From the IMG/VR virus record IMGVR_UViG_3300049491_000418, positions 1 through 64,000 of that record: 64,000 nt of DNA; one strand, given 5' to 3'. Of the stretch, positions 3,150 to 63,919 are shown one piece after another. Source of the stretch: a virus. The notes beneath the pieces are model-generated. The model made no database searches. It was not told the origin of the DNA and worked only from the letters and a program-made list of their open reading frames with translations. Numbering within the stretch: position 1 is the stretch's first letter; every line of letters starts with the position of its first letter. The translations under genes were made by a program, and so were the position numbers.

Positions 3150-5182
3150 TGGAAATCAAATCAACAGAGATGTTCAAGAACATCAAAAGGTTACCCCCAC
3201 CAGGGACTGAAGAATTCAGACAACTGATCAAGTGGGAGGAAGAAAAGATTAAAGGGGGAGTCACTATAAATGGAGTATTCATTTCTGGGTGGCTCTATTG
3301 GCATATAAACCATTGGTGGATTAGAATAGATGAAACTGATAAGCATGGTAATGATGTCCGTATTACTAGTCTTCCAGAGTTACGTGATAATGAGTGGATA
3401 AGAGCTGAAATTCTTGAGGAGTGTAAGAAGAATAAGGAAGGTTACCTTGAGGTTGGTGCCAGACAGGGAGCTAAGTCTGAAATGGAGGCTTCCTACTTTG
3501 GAATGAATGCCACACTCTTTGAGAACACACAGAATGTTATTGTGTGTGGTAATGATTATGACTTATCATTGCTTAAGGATAAGGTGGATTTTGGAATGAA
3601 GAATTTATGGACTGGTATAGCCATTCCAAGATTGGACAAAACCTGGAGATCCAATCAAATTAGATTAGGCTACAAGAAACCAAATGGGGAAGATGCCATT
3701 TGGAGTTATATAGTAATCCGTAATGCCAAGGATGGTAATGTTACAGAGGTTGCAGCAGGTACAACAGCCAAAAGCTTTATTATGGATGAGGTGGGGAAAT
3801 ATCCATTCTCATCTACATTTAAAGCAGCAGAGCCTGCTTTTAAAGGTAAGAATGGTTGGAGAGCTGTACCAATTCTTGTAGGTACAGGTGGATCATTTGA
3901 TAAAGGACAGGATGCTGAAAACTTCTTCTATAATCCTAGAGCCAATAACTTCCATGCTATTCTTGACCCAGAATCAGGTAGAGAAACAGGTTTGTTTTTA
4001 TCAGGATTGTATAGACAGGATTGTAAAGTTAAAACCTCTTTAGGGGATTGGTTGGTTAAAGAAAGAGGAATGACATTCCCTAAGAATGCAGAAATCTTTA
4101 AGATTGAAATGAATGTGGCTGATAAAGAGCTTGCCAGAAAGGTTATTGAGAAAGAAAGGATAGCAGCTAAACTAAATCCAGACAGAACCATATATTTAAA
4201 ACAAATTATGTACTATCCTCTTATTGTAGAGGAATGCTTCTTATCTTCAAGTGAAAACATATTTGATATTGAGGGAGCCAAAAGACAGAAAACAAGATTA
4301 CAGGAAGCTGCTCATTCAGGTACACCTGTTATACTATATGAAGATGGGGATGGTATTATCAAGCATGAGTTTACTGATAAGGAACCAATCTCTAATTTTC
4401 CAACTAAAAAAGATGATAATAAAGATGCTCCTATTATAATTCATGAGTTTCCAATTGACAGTCCACCATATGGATTGTATGTGGCAGGAGTTGACCCTTA
4501 TAGACAAGGGAAGGCTGCTTATTCAAGTTCCTTAGGATCTGTCTACATTTATAAAAGGATGCACAGTATATCAGGAGAAAAGTATCAAGACATGTTTGTG
4601 GCCACATATTGTGCCAGACCAGATAGAAAAGAAGTTTGGGAAGAACAGGCCAGATTATTAATTAAGTTTTATAATGCCAGAACCTTATGTGAAAATGATG
4701 AAATTTCTTTCATTGATTATATGATATCAAAAGGAGATGCAAGATACCTGGAAAGACAGCCTATCTGGCTTCAGGAGATTGTTCCAAACACCACAGTTAA
4801 AAGAGATTATGGAATTCATAGATCAGCTGAAAAAATTAGATTATTTTTGCATGGATGTTTGAAAAAATATACTGAGGAAGTATTAGTTAGACCATCTAAC
4901 AATGAAGGAGAAATTCAACCAGAGTTAAAAGGTATGACTAAGATATTTGATCCACTTCTTCTAGATGAGATGATTGCATATAATGATGAAGGAAACTTTG
5001 ATAGAATTGTAGCAGCTGAGCTAGCAATAGCCTTAGCCATGAAACTGGATCCTATAATGGGATCAATTGGAAGTGAGGGAGATGTAAGAGTAAGAGCTAT
5101 GTATGCCAAGGATAAACCAAAGAAAGGTTTGTTCTCACCATCAAGAAACATGTTTGTCAATAACAATAAATTATTCAAATAA
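3149..5182 (+). CDS. terL: Terminase large subunit
   Basis: Walker A-like GARQGAKSE, Walker B FIMDEVG, coupling motif VGTGG, RNase H-like nuclease AGVDPY...NFDRIVA; immediately upstream of the portal. Confidence 0.93.
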   Translation: MEIKSTEMFKNIKRLPPPGTEEFRQLIKWEEEKIKGGVTINGVFISGWLYWHINHWWIRIDETDKHGNDVRITSLPELRDNEWIRAEILEECKKNKEGYLEVGARQGAKSEMEASYFGMNATLFENTQNVIVCGNDYDLSLLKDKVDFGMKNLWTGIAIPRLDKTWRSNQIRLGYKKPNGEDAIWSYIVIRNAKDGNVTEVAAGTTAKSFIMDEVGKYPFSSTFKAAEPAFKGKNGWRAVPILVGTGGSFDKGQDAENFFYNPRANNFHAILDPESGRETGLFLSGLYRQDCKVKTSLGDWLVKERGMTFPKNAEIFKIEMNVADKELARKVIEKERIAAKLNPDRTIYLKQIMYYPLIVEECFLSSSENIFDIEGAKRQKTRLQEAAHSGTPVILYEDGDGIIKHEFTDKEPISNFPTKKDDNKDAPIIIHEFPIDSPPYGLYVAGVDPYRQGKAAYSSSLGSVYIYKRMHSISGEKYQDMFVATYCARPDRKEVWEEQARLLIKFYNARTLCENDEISFIDYMISKGDARYLERQPIWLQEIVPNTTVKRDYGIHRSAEKIRLFLHGCLKKYTEEVLVRPSNNEGEIQPELKGMTKIFDPLLLDEMIAYNDEGNFDRIVAAELAIALAMKLDPIMGSIGSEGDVRVRAMYAKDKPKKGLFSPSRNMFVNNNKLFK

Positions 5183-12613: not shown

Positions 12614-13792
12614 ATGGCAGATTTTTCTATAACCACGCTCTTCGTAGTCCCTACTGGAACCACAACACTTCCTGCCTCAGGAAGCACACAGGACCTAGGT
12701 GCAGGAGCTTTCGGGTTTTTCAGAAATGACTACACTGTAGCTACAGCAGCTAACGTTGCAGCAGCTCCTTATTTCTACATTGCTCAAGGAAGACAAAATT
12801 CCTATTTGCAAGGAAGTAAGAGATCAGACAAGATTAAGGGATGCCCAACAGCAAACTGTAACTCTAACATCACTGAATTTTACAAAGTGGTAGGTTGTCC
12901 TACAGCAGCTGTACAAATTACTGATGTGTCTAACTGGACCGTACAATGCGGAGATGTTGTAACATTGACTCTTAGAGCTCACTCAAGCTACATTGATACA
13001 TTGTATTTCAATGGATTAACAAGATCAGTAACTGTTCAAGCACCTTGTTGTGATTGTGGAGCAGATCCTTGTGCTGATGTTGATGCTCAAGCATTAGTAG
13101 ATGCATTTATCTACAAATTACAACAACAAGCTCCAGGGAACAATCCTGATAATTCTTCTTTGAATAATTATTTTACATTCCAAAGAATTGGATCAGGTGC
13201 AGCTTCAATCTTAAGAATTACTGGAAAACCTTTAACAAAATATGGAGTACCATGTGATGTTGCTGCTTTCCCACATGAATATGATAGAATGTGGTTTAGA
13301 ACCTTTGTTTATGAAGGTCCTGCTACTACTGCAGATTTCATTGTAAATGATTCTTGTAATGAAGTAGCTGATGCTACCATTGTTCAAAGATCTTCTTATC
13401 CTACAGGAACTTCAGAAGAGATTAGACAATTGGAAAAAAACTATTACAGTTATCAAGCTGGATACCTAAAACATTTATACAGAATGGCAGGGTATAATCA
13501 AAACTTTGAATCATACGTGGTTGATGGTGCTGCTTATACTACTTACTACTTGAAGTATAATGAGATAGACAAAACAGCTTACAATTGGGGTGATTACATT
13601 CCAGAGGATCAAATGTCTATTATTGCAATCAATAATGCTGATGCAGCTTTGATTACTTTAGTTGATGCTTTCCTTGTGGCTGCCTTAGGTGCTACTGCTT
13701 CTGTTGCAATCAATGCTTGTATTACTACAACATCAACTACAACAGCAGCTCCTCCTGCAACAACAACAACAACTTCTACGCTTATTCCTTAA
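12614..13792 (+). CDS. Auxiliary capsid (cement/decoration) protein with C-terminal Thr-rich tail (gene 73-like)
   Basis: Synteny; high-expression codon usage in the 5' part; own downstream terminator; Cys-rich; ends CITTTSTTTAAPPATTTTTSTLIP. Confidence 0.65.
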   Translation: MADFSITTLFVVPTGTTTLPASGSTQDLGAGAFGFFRNDYTVATAANVAAAPYFYIAQGRQNSYLQGSKRSDKIKGCPTANCNSNITEFYKVVGCPTAAVQITDVSNWTVQCGDVVTLTLRAHSSYIDTLYFNGLTRSVTVQAPCCDCGADPCADVDAQALVDAFIYKLQQQAPGNNPDNSSLNNYFTFQRIGSGAASILRITGKPLTKYGVPCDVAAFPHEYDRMWFRTFVYEGPATTADFIVNDSCNEVADATIVQRSSYPTGTSEEIRQLEKNYYSYQAGYLKHLYRMAGYNQNFESYVVDGAAYTTYYLKYNEIDKTAYNWGDYIPEDQMSIIAINNADAALITLVDAFLVAALGATASVAINACITTTSTTTAAPPATTTTTSTLIP

Positions 13793-24174: not shown

Positions 24175-24335
24175 TGAAAAAGTTACAGGTAATAGTAATA
24201 ATAGTAATCATCTTATTCTTTGTGATAGGATGTACTTCTATTATTATCTTTTCACCTACATTTGCACCAAGAACAAATGTTGAGATTAATAAAGATTCAA
24301 TTAAAAATAAAGACTCAATTAAAAAGAAATTATGA
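24171..24335 (+). CDS. Small putative lipoprotein (54 aa), not in the ORF track
   Basis: MMKKLQVIVIIVIILFFVIG-CTSIII...: basic n-region, hydrophobic h-region, lipobox VIG-C; ATGA overlaps with both neighbours. Confidence 0.65.
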   Translation: MMKKLQVIVIIVIILFFVIGCTSIIIFSPTFAPRTNVEINKDSIKNKDSIKKKL

Positions 24336-25099
24336 CAGTGTTTATAATATTTACAACAGTAGGAGCAGATGCTGGTCCTTTTAATCTCTATTCTAATGTA
24401 GGAGGTTATGCTATTGCTTTTGAAGTAGGAATAACAAAAGCTCAGTTGCTTGCAGGGTTTCCATCATCTAATGTTCCTTTAGGAACCAACATAATAAGAG
24501 CACAATCTTTTGGAGTTTGTACTAATTATGTAGATTTACCATTATTACCTGCTCCTACATCTACAACTACTACCTCTACAACTTGTGCAGGTTTTGAATA
24601 TACAATGGATATATATTGGTGTGGATTATGTACTCCTTCAGGAGGTGGTTCTATGAGTAATACAGAACCTCTTACAGTGGGTAAATGGTATTATGATAGT
24701 GTTATTAACTCTATAATTACTCCTACTAGTTTTGTTGGATGTAATCCTGGAACTAATAGAAGTATTTTAGATAGTACTAAACAAGATACATGTGCCGCAG
24801 TAATTTGTCCACCAACAACTACTACAAGTAGTACTACAACTCCTCCTGCTTATTTAGTAAATGTTAGTAACTCTACAGGATTTTCAAATTGTGATGGAGG
24901 TGGTGTAACTACCTATCCAATAGCATTATATGTTGAATTTGTTCCTATTATATTTGGTTCTGTTCTATATTATGATTTTGATTTAACTCTTCCTTTTGCA
25001 GGAGATGGAACTTGGTATAGTGTGAGTAGTACATTATCTTATAGAATTAATAATATAGGAGAGGTTACTGAAATAGATGATTGTGGTCCTCCTCCATGA
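24332..25099 (+). CDS. Putative virion decoration protein: GPF anchor domain + Thr linkers + small Cys beta-domains
   Basis: N-terminus AGPFNLYSNV; tracts PAPTSTTTTSTTC and CPPTTTTSSTTTPP. Confidence 0.65.
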   Translation: MTVFIIFTTVGADAGPFNLYSNVGGYAIAFEVGITKAQLLAGFPSSNVPLGTNIIRAQSFGVCTNYVDLPLLPAPTSTTTTSTTCAGFEYTMDIYWCGLCTPSGGGSMSNTEPLTVGKWYYDSVINSIITPTSFVGCNPGTNRSILDSTKQDTCAAVICPPTTTTSSTTTPPAYLVNVSNSTGFSNCDGGGVTTYPIALYVEFVPIIFGSVLYYDFDLTLPFAGDGTWYSVSSTLSYRINNIGEVTEIDDCGPPP

Positions 25100-25148: not shown

Positions 25149-25751
25149 ATGACAGTATTATTAACATTAACAATAGCAGGAATAGATACAGGTCCTTTTG
25201 ATTTATACTCAAACGTGGATGGTTATTCTGTACCCTTTGAAACCAATATAAGTAAAGCAGCTTTACAAGGGGGATACTCCTCTGTATTGGTACCTGACTT
25301 TGCAATTGTTGTTAGAGTTGTGTCTAAAGGAGTATGTAATACTTATGTTGATATTGTTTTAGCCTCTCTTACAACTACAACATCTACAGCAGTACCTACC
25401 ACTACCACTACAACTACTTCAGGAGTAACTGTAGAATTTAGTGCAGCTTATACTCAAGCTTTAGAAGCACCTTTAGGAGATTCTGATGCTGGATTTTTAT
25501 CAGGTAACATAACAATAACAGGAGGTTCTGCAACATTCTTTGCTTTTGCTGAAATATTTGTAGATGCTGGAGTAGGTAGTAATTTCTTAACAGATATAGA
25601 TATAGCTGGAAACTTAGCAACTGCTTTTATAGATACTATTGGTATGGATACTTCTGCAGGAATTGTTTTAGGTCCAGGTATATATTCTTATACTATTGAT
25701 TTATCTGTAAACTCTGCTGATGGTGGAGGAGGTATTTCTTATACAATATAA
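25149..25751 (+). CDS. Putative virion decoration protein, paralogue of 24332 (GPF domain + Thr linker + beta domain)
   Basis: N-terminus TGPFDLYSNV; tract TTTTSTAVPTTTTTTTS. Confidence 0.65.
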   Translation: MTVLLTLTIAGIDTGPFDLYSNVDGYSVPFETNISKAALQGGYSSVLVPDFAIVVRVVSKGVCNTYVDIVLASLTTTTSTAVPTTTTTTTSGVTVEFSAAYTQALEAPLGDSDAGFLSGNITITGGSATFFAFAEIFVDAGVGSNFLTDIDIAGNLATAFIDTIGMDTSAGIVLGPGIYSYTIDLSVNSADGGGGISYTI

Positions 25752-28629: not shown

Positions 28630-31600
28630 ATGGCTGAGGATAAAGACAAAAACTTGAAAGGAGAAATTAACTTTGAGTTTGGACAAGGGTTTAAAGGTCT
28701 TAATATGGATAATATTCCTAGTCAAATTGATAAGGGATCACTATCCTATGCTTTAAATGCTGCTATTGAAAACTTTGATGCCAACAGTATCACTTATCAA
28801 AATGAACCAGGTACAGAATTTTGCTTAAAGTTTCCAAAAGATTACATCTTAATAGGAAAATATCTTATTACAGAACAAAGCAAACAAGTTTTCTTCCTAG
28901 CTAATCCTTCTACAGGAGATAGTGAGATTGGTTACATGGTAAACAATGATTGTATTTACCACACTCTTGTTAATGATAAATGTTTGAATTTTGATGTAAG
29001 ATATCCTATCCATAAGGTAGTACACAAAACAAGTAATTGTGATACAGAAATCTATTGGGCTCAACCAAATGCTGATAGGAGATATATCAATATGGATCCT
29101 ACTAAAATACCTTATTTAGCTTTACCAGACAGTACTCCATGTGATGAGAAATTGACACTACAATTAGATTGTAATCAATTAAGAGTACAACCAAACTTTG
29201 ATATTCCTGGAATTATTGTTAAAGATGTTATAATTGGTGGTAATATTATTGCTGGGGTATATCAATTTGCTTTTCAATATTCTGATGCTTTAGGAAATCC
29301 TCTTACCTCTTACTATAGTATAACTAACCCTACTCCCATAGCAGATCCACAGTTTGCTTCAGTTAATTTTAATTATCCTGTAGGTAAATCCATTATTGTA
29401 GGTATTACTAATATTGAAACTGGTGGACAGTTTGAGTATTTTAATCTTGCTGTAATTAAAACAATCAATGCTATTACATCAGTTGACTTAATAGGTACTT
29501 ATAATATAGATAGTGATCAAAAAGATATAACATATGCTGGGCAGAATGTTTCATTAATTAACTTAACAGTTAATAATATCTTTGAGAAGTTTCCTTTCTA
29601 TGGTCCTGCTGATGATGTAACAACAGCACAAGATGTTCTTATATGGAAAGGATTATCTACTCCAGAGAGAATAAGTTATCAATCTATAGCAAATCAAATA
29701 ACTCTATTGTGGGAAACTGTTAGGATTCCTGCAACAGAAAACTATGCTGATGAATTAAATGCCACACATTTAAGAGGGTATTTAAGAGATGAAGTATATC
29801 CATTTGAATTTGTTCCTTTATTGAGAAGTGGACAACAAGTTGATGGATTTCACATTCCAGGAAGAGCACTAACTCTATCAGAGATAGCTTTACCTGTTAT
29901 TGATATATCTAATGATGATTTTACTGAAGATCCAGAATTATATCCAGATGGAGCACCTTATTGGAAAATATATAATACTGCTAAAGTAATAGGTAATTCT
30001 CCAGGATTTTCAACAGCCAGTGACTATAAAGGTCCTTATAATTATGGAATAATGGCATACTGGGAATCTAATGAAACTTATCCTTGTGATGAAGAAATGT
30101 GGGGAGAACTAGCTTCTCAACCTATTAGACACCATAAGTTTCCAGATGTATTAGTATCTCCCATTATAGAATCAAAAACAAATCCTCTTAATCTTGCATT
30201 AGAGATGGGGAATGATGCTGTGTTTCCTATTGGAGTTAGAGTTGATATAGAACAAATTAAACTATTAATAAAAACATCCTCTCTTACTGATTTACAAAAA
30301 GCTGATATTGTTGGCTTTAAGATTGTTAGAGGAGATAGAACTGATAATAAATCTATTGTTGCTAAAGGAATCCTTAGAAATGTTGGTACTTATAAAAGAG
30401 ATGACCAAGAGTTCTACTATCCTAATTATCCATATAATGATTTACATGCAGATCCTTTTTTAAATAGTAATAATAATGCTTACAATAGTGCTGCTAAATC
30501 TTGGTTAGTTATCTGTTCTGAAACAGGAGTGTTACAAATAGGAGATCCAGATACCAATAAACCAACTAAAAGAAATATGATTGCAGGTACAACAGAAGAA
30601 ATCTGTTCTACTTCTAGACCAGTTTATTTATCTGGTAAAGCAAATATAGGTCCTGCAGAGTATGATGTATGGTATGTTTATGACCATGGTTGTCATGGTA
30701 GTAGAGTAAATTGGGTAGATCCATTTAGTGATATTAATGCTGCCAACACTTTAAGAAGTGATTGGATGGAATCTATTTTTGGTATTAGTCAAAATCAACT
30801 TTATTGTAGAGTTGCTGTAGGTGGAAATGTAGAGTTTGAGTGTGATAATGGTGGATTTTTTGATCCTTGTGAATGTACACCTGTTCAAGTTTTTAAACCA
30901 TACACAAGTCAACCTGTAGATGTTATAGATTCTGATGGTGGTGGAGAAAATGATCCTCATATAGGAAGAAGAACTTTAAACAACTGTGAAGGAAATACTC
31001 CATTAGCACCTATTTCTACTAATGATTCATTAAGATATAGACAGATATTTAACTCTCCTGAAACCTCTTTTGGACAACCATTCCTAGGAGACATACTAAA
31101 GGCAGAGAGTGTTATATATGGTGGAGGTTTAGCTCACTTTGTTGAAGTAAAAGATAATGCTAAGTATAGATTGTTAACTAAAGAAGCTCAACAAGATGCT
31201 TTGACATCTGCAGGAGAAGTTGGTAATGGTGATGCAGCTGCTACCTTTACAGCATACCAAGCTTATCTTGAAATATATATTAATGGTATTACAAGAAAGA
31301 ACTATGCTTATTCTTTTAATTCTATAGCTGATTATAATTACTCTACTTCTATACCTAATGAACAAGGTATTAAACAAAGAAGACTTGACCTAAGAAGATA
31401 TCTTATCCCAGCAGTTCAAAATGTTGGAGAGAATGATATTGATATAAATAATTATCAAAGAGAATCATCTGTATATCTAAGAACAGATTTAGATATTGAC
31501 CCTCTTCCTTTCCCACATTTGAGTCCTAATATGATTCCTATTAATATTCAGGATATATCAAGATTCACTACAGGCTGTAGTGGTAGTACTACTTGTGTAG

Positions 31601-34251
31601 ATACATCTATGACAACTACAACTACAACTACATTCTATGTTCCTTATTGCCCTGGTTCATGTGCTGAGCCTGCCAAGAAACTACCTATTCAGGTTGTATC
31701 TTATTATGCTTCATTAAAAAATACATTTAGAGGACAGTGGGGACAAATTTATAGTTATCAAACTATTGATACTGGTTTTCAGGTAAATTTAGAAAATGAA
31801 GGTTCTGCTACCAAGATAGTTTTTGGTGGAGATACTTTTATCTCTAGGTTTGCTTTTAAAACTAAAGTTCCTTTCTTTATTGATAATAGAGTTGGAGCTC
31901 CTCAAGATAGTGAGGTATTTTATGATGAGTTAGGTAATATAGGTTATCCTAAATATTGGCATTCTTCTAGATCTATTTTAGAAGATTTTAATGTACCTGT
32001 TTTAGGAAACATGACTAATATTATTACTTACAAGGCACATAACTTTGATTGTCCAAATTGTCAAACAGTACCTGCAGTAGCTAATCCAAATAGAACTTTC
32101 TATGATGGTATATTTTATTTGTTTGCCTATGGAATACCTAACTTTTATGTTGAGACTAGTTATAATGTTGATTTAAGACAAGCTTTCAATAATAAGGAAG
32201 GAGACTTTTGGCCACATGTAAGTAATAGTATTCCTGATGATTGGGTACAAGAAAGTTTTGTAACTATTGCACAGGATAATACCTATTATTATAATGGATC
32301 ATTCTCTAAACAAAACACAGAGAATTATTTCTCTCATATACCAGCAAATTTTGAATTTGATGATTGTACTAGTAATTATCCATTTAGAGCTATATTTTCA
32401 GATCCTCAAATAGCTACAGCAGATACTACAGTTAATAACTGGTTGACATATAGAGCAAGTGCTTATTTTGATTTTCCTCAAAACTATGGGGCACTAACTT
32501 CATTGGATGGAATTGATAAAGGACAAGTATTGGCAAGATTTGAAAACAAAGCTTTATTATATAATGCATTATATACAACTCAAACAAATACAAATGGACA
32601 AGTTTATTTAGGACAATCATTGTTTACTAGACAACCACCTCCTTATGATTATGTAGAAACTGATTTAGGTTATTTAGGAAGTCAACATAAGTTTCTTCTT
32701 AAAATACCTCAAGGTCAAATAACTATTGATGCTAAGAGAGGTCAAGTGTTCCTTATGAACAATACTAAGGCACAAGATCTTTCAGCACCTGGTTCAGGTA
32801 TGAATAGATTCTTTACAGATCATTTGGCCTTTGAGATATTGAGATATTTTCCTAATGTTAATATTGACAACAATTTTAATAGAATAGGTCTTCATGGTGT
32901 ATATGATAGCAAATTTGATAGAGTTATTATAACCAAGCTTGATTATATTCCTTTAAGTACTGATATTGTATTTGATATGGATTCTCAGTCTTTCTATAAA
33001 GAGACTCAGGCAGAGATTGGTGTGTTTAAAGAACCAATTTCTGTAAATAATCCTGTTTACTTTTGTAATAAATCATGGACTATCTCTTATAGCTTTATTA
33101 CCAATAGTTGGTTATCTTTTCATAGTTATATACCTAATTGGTATATTGGTGAAAATAACTTTTTCTATTCTGGTAAAAAATCTTGTTGTGAACCTTTTAA
33201 ATTTTTAGCAGGAGAGATTATTGCAAATCCTTTAACAACCACAACAACAACTGCTTTCCCATTACCACCAACTACAACATCTACTACAACTATTGCTTTA
33301 GATTGTACATTGATTGGTGTGGCACAAGGAACTAGCTGTGAATTAGAAGGAACAGGTATAATAACCATACCTCCTCCAGGGCCTCCATGTACAAGACCTT
33401 CAGGATTAGATCCATTTGCATTATACACAGGTTACAATGTAATAGCTCCTCCTTCTTCAGTGGTTTCTACAGCTAGTTTTAGTGAAGCATGTAATGCTAA
33501 GTCATATATGTTGTATAATCTTGTCAATGTAACTCCTACTACTATAATAGGTTGGACAACTTCATTAGTTGTTGGTGTTACTGTATATGCTAATAATGCT
33601 ACTCAAGATTGTGAAGTTATACCAGATGGATTCTATTTCACACCTATAACTTTAGATGGTATTTATGAAGTTGTTAATGGTGTTATTGTATCAATAACTC
33701 CATGTAGTTTAACCACTACAACAACATCATCTTCCACAACTACAACTACAACTACAGCATTCCCAGTAATCCCTTGTAATTCATTAGTATCTTCTGGTGG
33801 AGTGGGTATAACAGAATACATAGTAGCTCTTGTATCAGAGGGTGGAACAGTAGCAATGGCATTAAATGCTGTAAGTGTTCCTGATAAATTAGAGATACTT
33901 CATAATGGTATTAAAAAAGCTACCTCAGGAATGACAACTCCTAATGAGGGACCATTTGATAACTTATATGGAGATCCTACAATTCCAACTGTACCTGAGA
34001 CAAATGCTACAGATCAATTTATTGGAACATCTAAAGGAACTATTCCTAATAGACAAGCTACATTTGCATCTGAAACAGGTTCAGGATTAATTATACCAGG
34101 AAGTTATCAACAAATAATCTGGTGGGAATACACTAATGCAGATTTTCTAATAAATCCTGTAGCAGTTATTAGAGTTACAGGTCCTGATACTACAGCTTGG
34201 GAGATACAAAGAATGTGTGAAACAACAACAACTACCACAACAACACCATAG
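28630..34251 (+). CDS. Muzzle/tail stabilisation protein, N-terminal and main part, with appended Thr-rich and adhesin-like modules
   Basis: 1873 aa; GLNMD...YALNA N-terminus, RGYLRDEVY, IRHHKFP, FGGDTFISRF and SWTISY...WLSFHSYIP motifs typical of the crAss-like Tstab; four poly-Thr tracts. Confidence 0.75.
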   Translation: MAEDKDKNLKGEINFEFGQGFKGLNMDNIPSQIDKGSLSYALNAAIENFDANSITYQNEPGTEFCLKFPKDYILIGKYLITEQSKQVFFLANPSTGDSEIGYMVNNDCIYHTLVNDKCLNFDVRYPIHKVVHKTSNCDTEIYWAQPNADRRYINMDPTKIPYLALPDSTPCDEKLTLQLDCNQLRVQPNFDIPGIIVKDVIIGGNIIAGVYQFAFQYSDALGNPLTSYYSITNPTPIADPQFASVNFNYPVGKSIIVGITNIETGGQFEYFNLAVIKTINAITSVDLIGTYNIDSDQKDITYAGQNVSLINLTVNNIFEKFPFYGPADDVTTAQDVLIWKGLSTPERISYQSIANQITLLWETVRIPATENYADELNATHLRGYLRDEVYPFEFVPLLRSGQQVDGFHIPGRALTLSEIALPVIDISNDDFTEDPELYPDGAPYWKIYNTAKVIGNSPGFSTASDYKGPYNYGIMAYWESNETYPCDEEMWGELASQPIRHHKFPDVLVSPIIESKTNPLNLALEMGNDAVFPIGVRVDIEQIKLLIKTSSLTDLQKADIVGFKIVRGDRTDNKSIVAKGILRNVGTYKRDDQEFYYPNYPYNDLHADPFLNSNNNAYNSAAKSWLVICSETGVLQIGDPDTNKPTKRNMIAGTTEEICSTSRPVYLSGKANIGPAEYDVWYVYDHGCHGSRVNWVDPFSDINAANTLRSDWMESIFGISQNQLYCRVAVGGNVEFECDNGGFFDPCECTPVQVFKPYTSQPVDVIDSDGGGENDPHIGRRTLNNCEGNTPLAPISTNDSLRYRQIFNSPETSFGQPFLGDILKAESVIYGGGLAHFVEVKDNAKYRLLTKEAQQDALTSAGEVGNGDAAATFTAYQAYLEIYINGITRKNYAYSFNSIADYNYSTSIPNEQGIKQRRLDLRRYLIPAVQNVGENDIDINNYQRESSVYLRTDLDIDPLPFPHLSPNMIPINIQDISRFTTGCSGSTTCVDTSMTTTTTTTFYVPYCPGSCAEPAKKLPIQVVSYYASLKNTFRGQWGQIYSYQTIDTGFQVNLENEGSATKIVFGGDTFISRFAFKTKVPFFIDNRVGAPQDSEVFYDELGNIGYPKYWHSSRSILEDFNVPVLGNMTNIITYKAHNFDCPNCQTVPAVANPNRTFYDGIFYLFAYGIPNFYVETSYNVDLRQAFNNKEGDFWPHVSNSIPDDWVQESFVTIAQDNTYYYNGSFSKQNTENYFSHIPANFEFDDCTSNYPFRAIFSDPQIATADTTVNNWLTYRASAYFDFPQNYGALTSLDGIDKGQVLARFENKALLYNALYTTQTNTNGQVYLGQSLFTRQPPPYDYVETDLGYLGSQHKFLLKIPQGQITIDAKRGQVFLMNNTKAQDLSAPGSGMNRFFTDHLAFEILRYFPNVNIDNNFNRIGLHGVYDSKFDRVIITKLDYIPLSTDIVFDMDSQSFYKETQAEIGVFKEPISVNNPVYFCNKSWTISYSFITNSWLSFHSYIPNWYIGENNFFYSGKKSCCEPFKFLAGEIIANPLTTTTTTAFPLPPTTTSTTTIALDCTLIGVAQGTSCELEGTGIITIPPPGPPCTRPSGLDPFALYTGYNVIAPPSSVVSTASFSEACNAKSYMLYNLVNVTPTTIIGWTTSLVVGVTVYANNATQDCEVIPDGFYFTPITLDGIYEVVNGVIVSITPCSLTTTTTSSSTTTTTTTAFPVIPCNSLVSSGGVGITEYIVALVSEGGTVAMALNAVSVPDKLEILHNGIKKATSGMTTPNEGPFDNLYGDPTIPTVPETNATDQFIGTSKGTIPNRQATFASETGSGLIIPGSYQQIIWWEYTNADFLINPVAVIRVTGPDTTAWEIQRMCETTTTTTTTP

Positions 34252-62032: not shown

Positions 62033-62040
62033 TATATTTG
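62033..62040 (+). promoter_or_regulatory. Bacteroidota -7 promoter box (TATATTTG) for the fibre/poly-Thr/glycosyltransferase unit
   Basis: Exact TAnnTTTG match in the 36-nt intergenic gap, ending 24 nt before ATG 62064. Confidence 0.6.
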
Positions 62041-62063: not shown

Positions 62064-62693
62064 ATGGGAACACCAAGCAAACAAATTGGATGGAGTCAGG
62101 AATCAAACCTACTTCATGCAATATTAAGACAACTTGATCAACTTGCTGGCGTAATAGCTGTCAGTGGAGGAGGTGGACTAGATAACTTTGTTACTCTAAA
62201 TACAGTCCAACCTATTGTTGCAAGGAAAGATTTCTCTGTAGTTGCAGGACCTGCATCTACTTTTACATCTTCTACTGGAAATACAGTGAATGTTACTGCC
62301 ACTACTGGTAGTGGTGTATATAGTACATCTGTTGATGGCCCAGCTATAGAAGGATTTTCAGTTAATGATCCAGGTATTTTTGGGTATTCCAGTAATAGTG
62401 CTGGTGTATTTGCTCACTCACAGAACTTTGTTGCTCTTATTGTAGACTCTTTAAATCCAGGGAACCTTAGTGATTTAGCTAATTTTAATCTTAATGGAGT
62501 ACCTGCAGTTAGAATTACTAATAATGGTAAATTAAGTCTAAAAGCTTCTACAACATTAGCTGCAGTATTAAATTTACCTGTAGGAGTTGCTCCTACTGCT
62601 CCTGCTGATGGAGACATTTGGTTAGAGAGCACTGCTTTAACAGGGTTAAAAATAAGATTAGGTGGAGTAACTAGAACTTTAACTATAACATAA
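62064..62693 (+). CDS. Short fibre/decoration protein (QIGWSQE anchor + beta-solenoid + tip domain)
   Basis: N-terminus KQIGWSQESNLL; G-rich 11-aa repeats; C-terminus similar to that of fibre 14808. Confidence 0.65.
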   Translation: MGTPSKQIGWSQESNLLHAILRQLDQLAGVIAVSGGGGLDNFVTLNTVQPIVARKDFSVVAGPASTFTSSTGNTVNVTATTGSGVYSTSVDGPAIEGFSVNDPGIFGYSSNSAGVFAHSQNFVALIVDSLNPGNLSDLANFNLNGVPAVRITNNGKLSLKASTTLAAVLNLPVGVAPTAPADGDIWLESTALTGLKIRLGGVTRTLTIT

Positions 62694-62830
62694 TGTCATA
62701 TATCCCACGCCAGATAGGATGGTCTCAGGAGGCAATCCTATTGCAGAAAATATTGAAGAAGTTGATAGGTATTACTAAACTTGCAGCAGCTGCAAGCCCA
62801 GCAACTACAACTACTACAACTACACTATAA
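62693..62830 (+). CDS. 45-aa QIGWSQE-anchor peptide with poly-Thr tail, not in the ORF track
   Basis: MSYIPRQIGWSQEAILLQKILKKLIGITKLAAAASPATTTTTTTL*; TAATG overlap with the previous gene; paralogous N-terminus. Confidence 0.8.
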   Translation: MSYIPRQIGWSQEAILLQKILKKLIGITKLAAAASPATTTTTTTL

Positions 62831-62851: not shown

Positions 62852-63919
62852 ATGAGAGAGCTAGCCTTCATTACGGCATGCCCAGATGATACTTACTTTA
62901 CATGGCAAGTACATTTGTGGCTTGAAAGTTTAAGAGAGATTGGGAAATCAGATAAAGCAGTAGTGCTTGTTTTTACTCCAGTCTTTAGGGATCAAAACCC
63001 TAAGTGGGAACAAATTGTGGACTTATATCCAGAAGCTGTTTTTAATTTTTACAAAGATGAAGATAACATCTCTTCTTTATTAGGAATTTATATTCCAGTG
63101 TTAAGACCTTATCTTATGTGGAGATTTCTTAAGGAAAATCCTGTATACACAAGTAAGGCATTGTTTTATTGTGATAGTGATATTCTCTTTACAGAGAAGT
63201 TCAATGTTGATGATTTCTTAGAAGATGATATTAATTACCTATCAGATACTAATAGCTATATAAATGCTGATTACTTTGATAGTAAAGTAAAAGATGTTCT
63301 TCCTGAGAAATTAGAAGAATACAAAACAAGAGATATCCTTGGTGAAGTAACCAGTTTAATTGGTATCACAAGGGAAATCTGTGAAGCAAATAATAAGAAC
63401 TCTGGAGGGGCTCAATATTTGCTAAAGAACATGGATAGTTCTTTCTGGTCTAAGGTTATGAATGACTGTATAATCATTAGAACCTATTTACTAAAAATAA
63501 ATAGAGAATTCTTTAAAGATGAGAATGCAGGATTTCAAAGTTGGTGTGCTGACATGTTTGCTGTTCTTTGGAACATTTGGTTAAGAAAACAGGAAACAAA
63601 AGTTATACCTGAATTAAATTTTGCTTGGTCTACTGATCCTATAGAAAAACTTCAAGAGACTACCATCTTGCATAATGCAGGAATTGTAGGAGAGTTTCAA
63701 ACTACTGGAACAAGTCACAAAATGACTAAGTCTGGAATGCTTACAGTACATGAGGGTTATAATGCCTTTTACAAGGGTAAGTATCATCAAGGATCAGATC
63801 CTATGATGGATCCACACTTAGACAAAGTATTAAATGATACTAACTCTCAGAAACATTGCACTTGGTTTTATGCCAAGAAATTAAAAGAATTAAGTAACAA
63901 ATTTCAATTACAGTACTGA
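62852..63919 (+). CDS. GT-A fold glycosyltransferase resembling plant protein O-glycosyltransferases (GT96 SERGT1 / GT95 HPAT)
   Basis: DxD motif LFYCDSDILF; YFTWQ; YIPVLRPY; GGAQYLL; WCADMFAV; ILHNAG; no signal peptide. Confidence 0.75.
   Translation: MRELAFITACPDDTYFTWQVHLWLESLREIGKSDKAVVLVFTPVFRDQNPKWEQIVDLYPEAVFNFYKDEDNISSLLGIYIPVLRPYLMWRFLKENPVYTSKALFYCDSDILFTEKFNVDDFLEDDINYLSDTNSYINADYFDSKVKDVLPEKLEEYKTRDILGEVTSLIGITREICEANNKNSGGAQYLLKNMDSSFWSKVMNDCIIIRTYLLKINREFFKDENAGFQSWCADMFAVLWNIWLRKQETKVIPELNFAWSTDPIEKLQETTILHNAGIVGEFQTTGTSHKMTKSGMLTVHEGYNAFYKGKYHQGSDPMMDPHLDKVLNDTNSQKHCTWFYAKKLKELSNKFQLQY

Follow-up and report, generated by a model that had tools for sequence, protein, structure and literature searches.

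In the uncultured viral record IMGVR_UViG_3300049491_000418 (IMG/VR), a 45-residue protein that consists of an N-terminal helix, a short spacer and a terminal run of seven threonines is encoded directly upstream of a predicted glycosyltransferase gene. The record comprises 106,775 bp (33% G+C, 92% complete), and its first 64 kb (64,000 nucleotides, nt) constitute the window analysed here. The small gene (62693-62830, + strand), referred to below, together with its short relatives, as a mini, was pointed out in a preliminary description of this DNA, the interpretation of which is partly supported by the present analysis. The mini would be a translated late gene and the most reduced member of a family of modular fibre proteins, and we give about even chances to this reading as a whole, in which it would serve as a minimal carrier by which sugars are placed on the phage particle.

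The open reading frame (ORF) of the mini runs from the ATG at 62693 to the TAA at 62828-62830, which is immediately followed by a second TAA. Its layout is as previously described, with each element found in the translation. Residues 1-30 (62693-62782) form the predicted anchor helix, which contains the QIGWSQE motif shared with the upstream ORF 62064, followed by hydrophobic residues at positions 16/17, 20, 24, 27 and 30. These hydrophobic positions are conserved and heptad-spaced, and the helix is amphipathic; an alignment of the anchors of 22 minis reveals that L17 and I20 are invariant and that G9, L16, K22 and L24 are at least 90% conserved. The anchor is therefore predicted to be a probable coiled-coil or attachment module. 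The spacer AAAASPA (residues 31-37, 62783-62803) contains no Cys in the copy of the window, and a Cys pair is present in the spacer of 36 of 120 database minis. The last segment (62804-62830) comprises the block of seven threonines (T7; residues 38-44, 62804-62824), which is coded by ACT and ACA in mixed order, then Leu45 and the stop codon. In the whole 106,775-bp genome, the anchor helix is found only in the mini and in ORF 62064 (E 4.3e-4), and searches of Pfam and PHROGs with the mini and with the 209-residue product of ORF 62064 give no family match. The transferase gene, ORF 62852, starts 21 nt after the mini stop, which confirms the reported distance; the gap ranges from 19 to 44 nt in relatives. 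A read-through fusion of the mini with the transferase is ruled out, as the two genes are in the same frame here but are separated by three TAA codons.

The mini is conserved under purifying selection. The helix regions of 37 distinct mini sequences have a median proportion of nonsynonymous differences (pN) of 0.25 and of synonymous differences (pS) of 0.71, the ratio of the corresponding rates (dN/dS) is approximately 0.2 where dS is unsaturated, and third codon positions are the most variable. A profile built from the 22 minis retrieves at least 926 clusters (90% identity) of 24-114 residues, with homologous minis of 44-65 residues, from a collection of 5.8 billion proteins; one of these clusters is named, as an uncharacterised Virus NIOZ-UU157 protein. 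In the best 120 of these clusters, from which the length and stop statistics are taken, lengths are bimodal, with 45-48 residues for one block and 54-57 residues for two blocks that are joined by (V/A)AP. A Thr block is present in 119 of the 120, and the stop lies 0-5 residues past the last block in 116 of these 119. In three database minis (P0272, P0311 and P0379), the anchor helix is duplicated in tandem, and a Thr block at the end may be present or absent. At the level of the family, the pattern by far exceeds what chance would give, and there is little doubt that ORF 62693-62830 encodes a real protein.

To place the mini within its family, 80 viral loci with a homologue of ORF 62852 (56-74% identical) were compared along with the locus of the window. 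A hidden Markov model of the helix detects 128 ORFs of 33-1284 residues in these 81 loci, with up to three per genome: 56 minis of 33-74 residues (45 unique) and 72 long forms of 109-1284 residues (63 unique). All are built from the helix and a spacer, which often contains a Cys pair, followed by any number of T7-8 blocks from zero to several and by either a variable C-domain or nothing. The preliminary description took the Thr run to be the functional part of the mini, and the block does look like its selected payload: it is carried by 42 of the 45 unique minis (93%) and by 28 of the 63 unique long forms (44%), the stop follows right after it, and its length is 7 in 31 and 8 in 12 of 45 blocks in the minis of relatives. 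None of these blocks is coded by a single codon, with a mean of 2.9 different codons per block, which indicates that Thr is selected at the protein level and rules out slippage as the source of the run.

The long paralogue of the window (62064-62693, + strand; 209 residues) shares the N-terminal helix, which is followed by a GGGG linker and a fibre-like C-domain rich in Gly, Ser, Thr and Val, without a Thr block. Its look-alikes in the ESM Atlas, which serve as a lead only, are clusters of phage hyaluronidase (HylP)/Mtd_N and of the T4 gp9/10 N-terminus (0.85-0.90), and some long forms of relatives contain collagen-like G-X-Y runs or fibre-type Gly/Asn/Ser repeats. The anchors of several minis are 93-97% identical to those of long forms from other genomes, and at least four mini/long pairs have a nearly identical anchor and spacer and differ solely in the C-domain after the Thr block. 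The minis thus appear to be C-domain-less alleles of modular fibre-like genes, with the Thr block as the boundary of domain gain and loss. Within one genome, the anchors of mini and long forms have a mean identity of 71%, compared with 83-85% between a mini and the anchors of other genomes.

The small ORFs with the QIGWS helix also lie beside transferase homologues elsewhere, as the preliminary description had suggested should be checked. Among 79 loci with upstream sequence, the slot within 70 nt upstream of the homologue is occupied by a mini in 39, by a long form in 21 and by another gene in 19. In six of these 19 (L006-L008, L012, L047 and L053, at about 4405-5013), the mini is set apart from the homologue only by a gene of approximately 200 residues, called a homing endonuclease by eye only, which brings the count to 45 of 79. 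A hidden, frameshifted C-domain behind these non-adjacent minis is ruled out, as the gap holds this endonuclease-like gene. In ten near-complete genomes chosen via an unrelated 1631-residue protein, the transferase is present in all ten and the helix family in six, with every member within about 3 kb of the transferase and nowhere else. The mini is the sole anchor gene within 5 kb in about 20 loci, most mini-bearing genomes also hold one to three long forms, and minis are also found away from the transferase start (for example in L039, L040 and L047). In two loci without QIGWS (L014, 2007-4535; L026, 4307-4774), proteins with another common N-terminus, MRRCD.IYEIVTVYYPTSC, followed by a long (TS)n stretch lie beside the transferase.

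A candidate late promoter of the operon formed by the anchor genes and the transferase is provided by TATATTTG (62033-62040, + strand), a sequence match to the TAnnTTTG -7 box, the first base of which lies 31 nt 5' of the ATG of ORF 62064. Of 61 distinct related loci, 39 have the box approximately 31 nt 5' of the ATG of their first anchor gene; it precedes only 2 of 42 later anchor genes and turns up in 3.9% of random 60-mers. Because the box precedes only the first anchor gene, the mini appears to be co-transcribed with the 209-residue paralogue and to share its promoter, in agreement with the promoter box that had been placed upstream of it. The ATG of the mini overlaps the stop of ORF 62064-62693 (TAATG), so the ORFs are coupled. 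The two-box pattern TTTG-N17-21-TAnnTTTG is not enriched (2 found and 3.1 expected), which leaves the -7 box as the sole supported element, and a scan for sigma-70 sites gives no more than in shuffled controls.

ORF 62852 (62852-63919, + strand; 355 residues) is located where the + strand structural block ends, under the promoter box of the fibre-like genes. The preliminary description called it a glycosyltransferase, and fold and motif bear this out, while family annotation does not: no Pfam family, including Glyco_transf_8, matches at E values up to 0.1, the PHROG match is phrog_4417, a family without an assigned function, and searches of PDB sequences with the protein and its profile return nothing meaningful. 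An AlphaFold2 model based on an alignment with 86 diverse homologues has a predicted local distance difference test score (pLDDT) of 96.9 and a predicted template modelling score (pTM) of 0.93; it was used in place of the model from the sequence alone, which has a pLDDT of 38. Foldseek matches this model in the PDB to glycogenin, UGGT, the xyloside xylosyltransferase XXYLT1, GT6 enzymes and Skp1 alpha-GalT (E approximately 1e-6, probability 1.00). With VIA-align against 48,161 chains, Z scores of 14.3 for glycogenin (229 residues, root-mean-square deviation 3.8), 14.2 for LgtC, 14.1 for Skp1 GalT and 14.0 for UGGT are obtained, followed by 13.2 for GlyE and 11.4 for PBCV-1 A64R; the aligned lengths are 214-245 residues for glycogenin, LgtC, Skp1 GalT and UGGT, and 190-229 for glycogenin, Skp1 GalT, GlyE and A64R. 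D108 and D110 (DSD) are invariant in the 86 homologues, down to about 29% identity, and GT2, methyltransferase, GlcNAc-T or O-FucT domains are found as fusion partners in longer homologues. By predicted fold and DxD motif, ORF 62852 is a GT-A, GT8-like glycosyltransferase that is not a member of Glyco_transf_8 by sequence.

The mini had also been presented as the strongest link between Thr tracts and the glycosyltransferase, a rank that it does not hold, since a second small-protein family and the poly-Thr tails of unrelated phages provide links that are at least as strong. The second family comprises proteins of 55-100 residues, in which an unrelated N-module of approximately 48 residues (FVRFDGSGR ... 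KPKVGKW ... ECC) precedes between one and four T7 blocks. It adjoins the transferase downstream in 41 of 77 loci, about 20 nt past the transferase stop (L003-L082), and a member is located within 4 kb in 70 of 77. Blocks are present in 83 of 89 unique members, and long forms exist in this family as well. In the phage described here, the member is a 199-residue protein with eight Thr blocks and an acidic poly-Asp/His tail, encoded just beyond the window (genome 64659-65258; L090:859-1458).

A tblastn search with the transferase reveals homologues in 77 cultured phage records (27-34% identity in Firmicutes phages, E down to 1e-47), from which ten were inspected: one Chryseobacterium phage and nine Firmicutes phages (of Enterococcus, Clostridium, Lactococcus, Lacticaseibacillus, Staphylococcus and Lactobacillus). 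In all ten, neighbouring virion genes carry poly-Thr tails. These are located on the major tail protein in VPE25, in Staphylococcus phage PMBT8 (T16) and, together with the preceding gene, in phiFL1A; on the major capsid protein in Enterococcus phage 4995_1; on gp18 in phiCTP1; on orf10 and orf13 in phage 1706; on orf50 in bIL285; and on the gene upstream of the enzyme in Lacticaseibacillus phage R3.3, which has a second run further downstream. In the Lactobacillus myophage Semele, two genes just 5' of the enzyme are tagged, and in Chryseobacterium phage MA9V-3, long Thr/Ser blocks are found on two upstream proteins with a common N-module of their own. The Semele locus (Herelleviridae; L124, 4649-4996) includes a 115-residue tag-only gene, with an N-part of approximately 55 residues and five T5ST3-VKP repeats, that ends 4 nt before the homologue. 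Mainly because this pairing recurs across unrelated phages, Thr blocks are considered the probable substrate of this enzyme family. Two further features were seen in these phages. In Lactococcus phage bIL285 (L086, about 2950-2985), the frame of the capsid gene continues past its TAA as NDK-T6-RHD-stop, which may represent a read-through Thr tag on a fraction of the capsid subunits or a decayed tag. In Enterococcus phage VPE25 (L125, 4728-4870), an open frame with three Thr blocks overlaps, in a different reading frame, the last nine or so codons of the gene before the transferase and may be a Thr tail added by frameshifting.

Taken together, the mini may function as follows. The 209-residue fibre paralogue, the mini and the transferase would be transcribed together from the TAnnTTTG late promoter, and in the cytoplasm the adjacent GT-A enzyme (GT8-like, retaining-type, DxD) would transfer sugar from a nucleotide-sugar to the hydroxyls of the T7 block. 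The glycan may be extended by a GT6 enzyme and a methyltransferase, both encoded 3 kb away. The helix would dock or co-oligomerise, probably as an oligomer, at the virion fibre attachment site used by its paralogues; a location of the mini in the virion is somewhat more likely than not. The particle would end up with short, glycan-bearing stubs that have no protein payload, and shielding, stiffening or protection of linkers, or a role in adhesion, are possible functions of the glycan.

Several observations weigh against this reading. Linkers of poly-Thr are a frequent feature of Bacteroidota proteins. The anchor can occur independently of the block, as 35 of the 63 unique long forms have the anchor without a Thr block, and the nearest orthologue of the mini (in L004, where the transferase is 73% identical) is a 33-residue protein that consists of the anchor only, with no Thr run in any frame. 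The alternation of mini and long forms between genomes also fits the loss of a domain at a linker. Concerning the location in the virion, tblastn searches of both small-protein families against cultured phages yield no match. Additionally, selection via the 1631-residue protein provides no transferase-less genome, which makes the enzyme a core gene (10 of 10) and leaves no contrast between presence and absence, and synteny within one lineage counts as one evolutionary event.

Part of this evidence would also be accommodated if the mini were the stub of a fibre gene with an empty cassette, which we consider unlikely but worth serious attention. The C-domain would have been lost at the Thr-linker boundary, the helix would still cap the docking site or be nearly neutral, the Thr run would be a leftover linker, and the transferase would modify proteins other than the mini or would leave Thr blocks unmodified altogether. 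The pairs that differ solely in the C-domain agree with such a loss, as do the slot just 5' of the enzyme, which holds a mini (39 loci) or a long form (21 loci), the three paralogous families of this genome that use Thr blocks as linkers between N-module and C-domain, and the L004 orthologue without a Thr run. However, if truncation were random, 116 of 119 minis would not have their stop 0-5 residues past the block, nor would lengths be bimodal, with one or two blocks. Blocks are also enriched in minis, which are very widespread and under purifying selection. The unrelated second family is also tag-only on the other side of the enzyme, as is the 115-residue gene of the Lactobacillus myophage. 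The loss of the C-domain thus fits the interconversion of mini and long forms and the L004 orthologue; it accounts less well for where the stop lies, for the enrichment and quantised length of the blocks, and for the tag-only families that occur in parallel. Alternatively, the mini may be an assembly partner or regulator that is not displayed, the helix of which co-oligomerises or competes with the long paralogues and thereby tunes fibre number or type, or chaperones trimerisation. The co-transcription and translational coupling with a long paralogue, the one to three long forms in most mini genomes and the hydrophobic pattern, which suggests a coiled coil, are consistent with this role. It is nevertheless improbable: in about 20 loci no other anchor gene accompanies the mini within 5 kb, no role falls to the T7 block, which is strictly conserved and terminal, and anchors are less alike within a genome (71%) than across genomes (83-85%), which argues against co-evolving partners.

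A leader-core precursor has also been considered, in which the helix would be a recognition leader for the transferase, as in ribosomally synthesised and post-translationally modified peptides (RiPPs) and glycocins, and the product a free glycopeptide or an enzyme primer instead of a part of the virion. A small peptide with a conserved N-part, a modifiable C-part and an adjoining modifying enzyme has the appearance of such a system, a Cys pair precedes the Thr block in many relatives, and the structure that matches the enzyme best is that of glycogenin, a protein glucosyltransferase that primes itself. Nonetheless, the homologues in Firmicutes phages pair with poly-Thr capsid and tail proteins that have no leader in common, two or three unrelated N-modules carry blocks in this phage, the supposed leader is present without a Thr block in over half of the long forms, and no protease or exporter/transporter gene is seen among the neighbours, all of which render this explanation quite remote. 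Least credible is a non-functional ORF, which arises by chance or acts only as an upstream ORF that regulates translation of the transferase. The mini is very short, has no family annotation and ends 21 nt before the next gene, but amino-acid conservation with saturated synonymous change, and thus the selection analysis, contradicts this idea. There are, moreover, hundreds of homologous clusters, Thr is kept through mixed codons, and minis also occur away from the transferase start (L039, L040 and L047).

Blocks of T6-8 occur in only six proteins of the genome, all encoded in the + strand structural block, and three of the six end within three residues past a block. Virion membership is annotated for only one of the six, the 1873-residue virion structural protein (28630-34251, + strand; phrog_37948, 3e-101), which has five Thr blocks, the last of them one residue before the stop. 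A 392-residue structural-module protein (12614-13792, + strand) with two Thr blocks, ending three residues before the stop, is a likely acceptor. The C-terminal tags of these two proteins appear to be like those of the capsid and tail proteins of Firmicutes phages. Two adjacent paralogues of 255 and 200 residues (24332-25099 and 25149-25751, + strand) share an N-module of approximately 70 residues, carry Thr blocks and have different C-domains; they are a third case of module, T-block and variable domain in this phage.

Downstream of the transferase, a GIY-YIG/NUMOD3 homing endonuclease gene (PF01541, PF07460; + strand) starts at 63919, continues beyond the end of the window (64000) up to position 64632 of the genome, and lies between the transferase and the poly-Thr protein further downstream. 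Homing endonuclease genes are found on either side of the transferase, depending on the genome. On the - strand at genome positions 66475-67915 (L090:2675-4115), 3 kb from the transferase, a gene with a Pfam GT6 match (1.4e-15) overlaps a gene for an S-adenosylmethionine (SAM) methyltransferase, and this pair is a candidate for the glycan-extending enzymes.

TAnnTTTG is the -7 promoter consensus of Bacteroidota, and the conserved box before the anchor genes therefore makes a host from this phylum likely. A blastn comparison of the locus with cultured phages gives no match, and the sole cultured relative of the capsid protein is from a Leptolyngbya phage (26% identity), so no named family is assigned here. 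The gene order and the giant proteins give only an impression of a crAss-like phage. For the abundant, uncultured marine/freshwater lineage related to NIOZ-UU157, we tentatively suggest, with somewhat less than even confidence, that the particle surface consists partly of genetically encoded, payload-free glycan carriers, with two unrelated microprotein families, each made solely of a module that docks on the virion and quantised T7 blocks, flanking a dedicated cytoplasmic protein O-glycosyltransferase. In this modular "glyco-tag" system, distal domains would come and go at the T7 boundary, and T7 would be a portable acceptor for this enzyme family across the phages of Bacteroidota and Firmicutes.

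To our knowledge, mycobacteriophages are so far the only phages for which experiments have demonstrated glycosylated particles. A literature search found no description of this enzyme family, of poly-Thr tags outside Actinobacteria phages or of tag-only microproteins. New here are the possibility that the tag can be a free-standing microprotein, the likely status of the minis as C-domain-less alleles of modular fibre genes, and the second, unrelated family of small proteins with a module and T7 downstream of the enzyme. If the reading is correct, the unannotated phrog_4417, with T7-8 as a simple and portable acceptor, would make particle glycosylation a property of Bacteroidota and Firmicutes phages as well. 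The 45-residue anchor-plus-T7 peptide and the enzyme would constitute a two-gene system that is directly testable in E. coli and possibly a compact glyco-tag. The poly-Thr "linkers" of structural proteins in phages may act both as sites of modification and as recombination boundaries for domain exchange, and functional phage microproteins would be routinely missed or ignored by gene callers and annotators.

The closest parallel in function is the virion O-glycosylation of mycobacteriophages (Che8, Corndog and Myrna; Freeman et al. 2023, as cited in a passage of PMC12619734). According to that passage, the glycosyltransferases are likewise encoded by the phages, and the glycans are located on terminal extensions of exposed virion proteins (PMC12619734). 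The acceptor tails described there are within the major capsid and tail-tube proteins, whereas one acceptor candidate here is a free-standing 45-residue protein with its own helix. The inferred host phylum (Bacteroidota) and the phage lineage also differ, and glycosylation in the present case is predicted from the genes. In the Firmicutes phages with phrog_4417, the enzymes are homologous, T6-T16 blocks end neighbouring virion proteins, and Semele also has a tag-only small gene. The tags of Firmicutes siphophages mostly end major capsid and tail proteins, whereas those described here are on fibre-like modular proteins and microproteins of an uncultured phage of approximately 107 kb, in which, unlike in the Firmicutes phages, two tag-only families flank the enzyme. 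ORF 62852 has the GT-A fold and the DxD motif in common with retaining GT8-type protein glycosyltransferases, such as glycogenin, Skp1 alpha-GalT and GlyE of the pneumococcal serine-rich-repeat adhesin pathway, and with A64R of the chlorovirus PBCV-1, which acts in capsid glycosylation; the identity is only 10-12%, and the likeness is one of fold.

With regard to architecture, multi-fibre phages have conserved N-termini on exchangeable tail fibres and tailspikes, and small decoration proteins are represented by Soc and Hoc of T4 and gpD of lambda. As in multi-fibre phages, paralogues in one genome keep one N-module and swap distal domains, and the mini would correspond to a small accessory protein of the particle. 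Unlike Soc, Hoc and gpD, the mini has no folded domain, and the likeness is one of architecture. Mucin-type and Thr/Pro-rich O-glycosylated linkers, which are products of the secretory pathway, resemble the present proteins in that short Thr blocks separated by (V/A)AP are located between domains and at termini. In contrast to these linkers, the block length here is strictly quantised (7-8), and the proteins would be made in the bacterial cytoplasm and modified by a putative phage enzyme.

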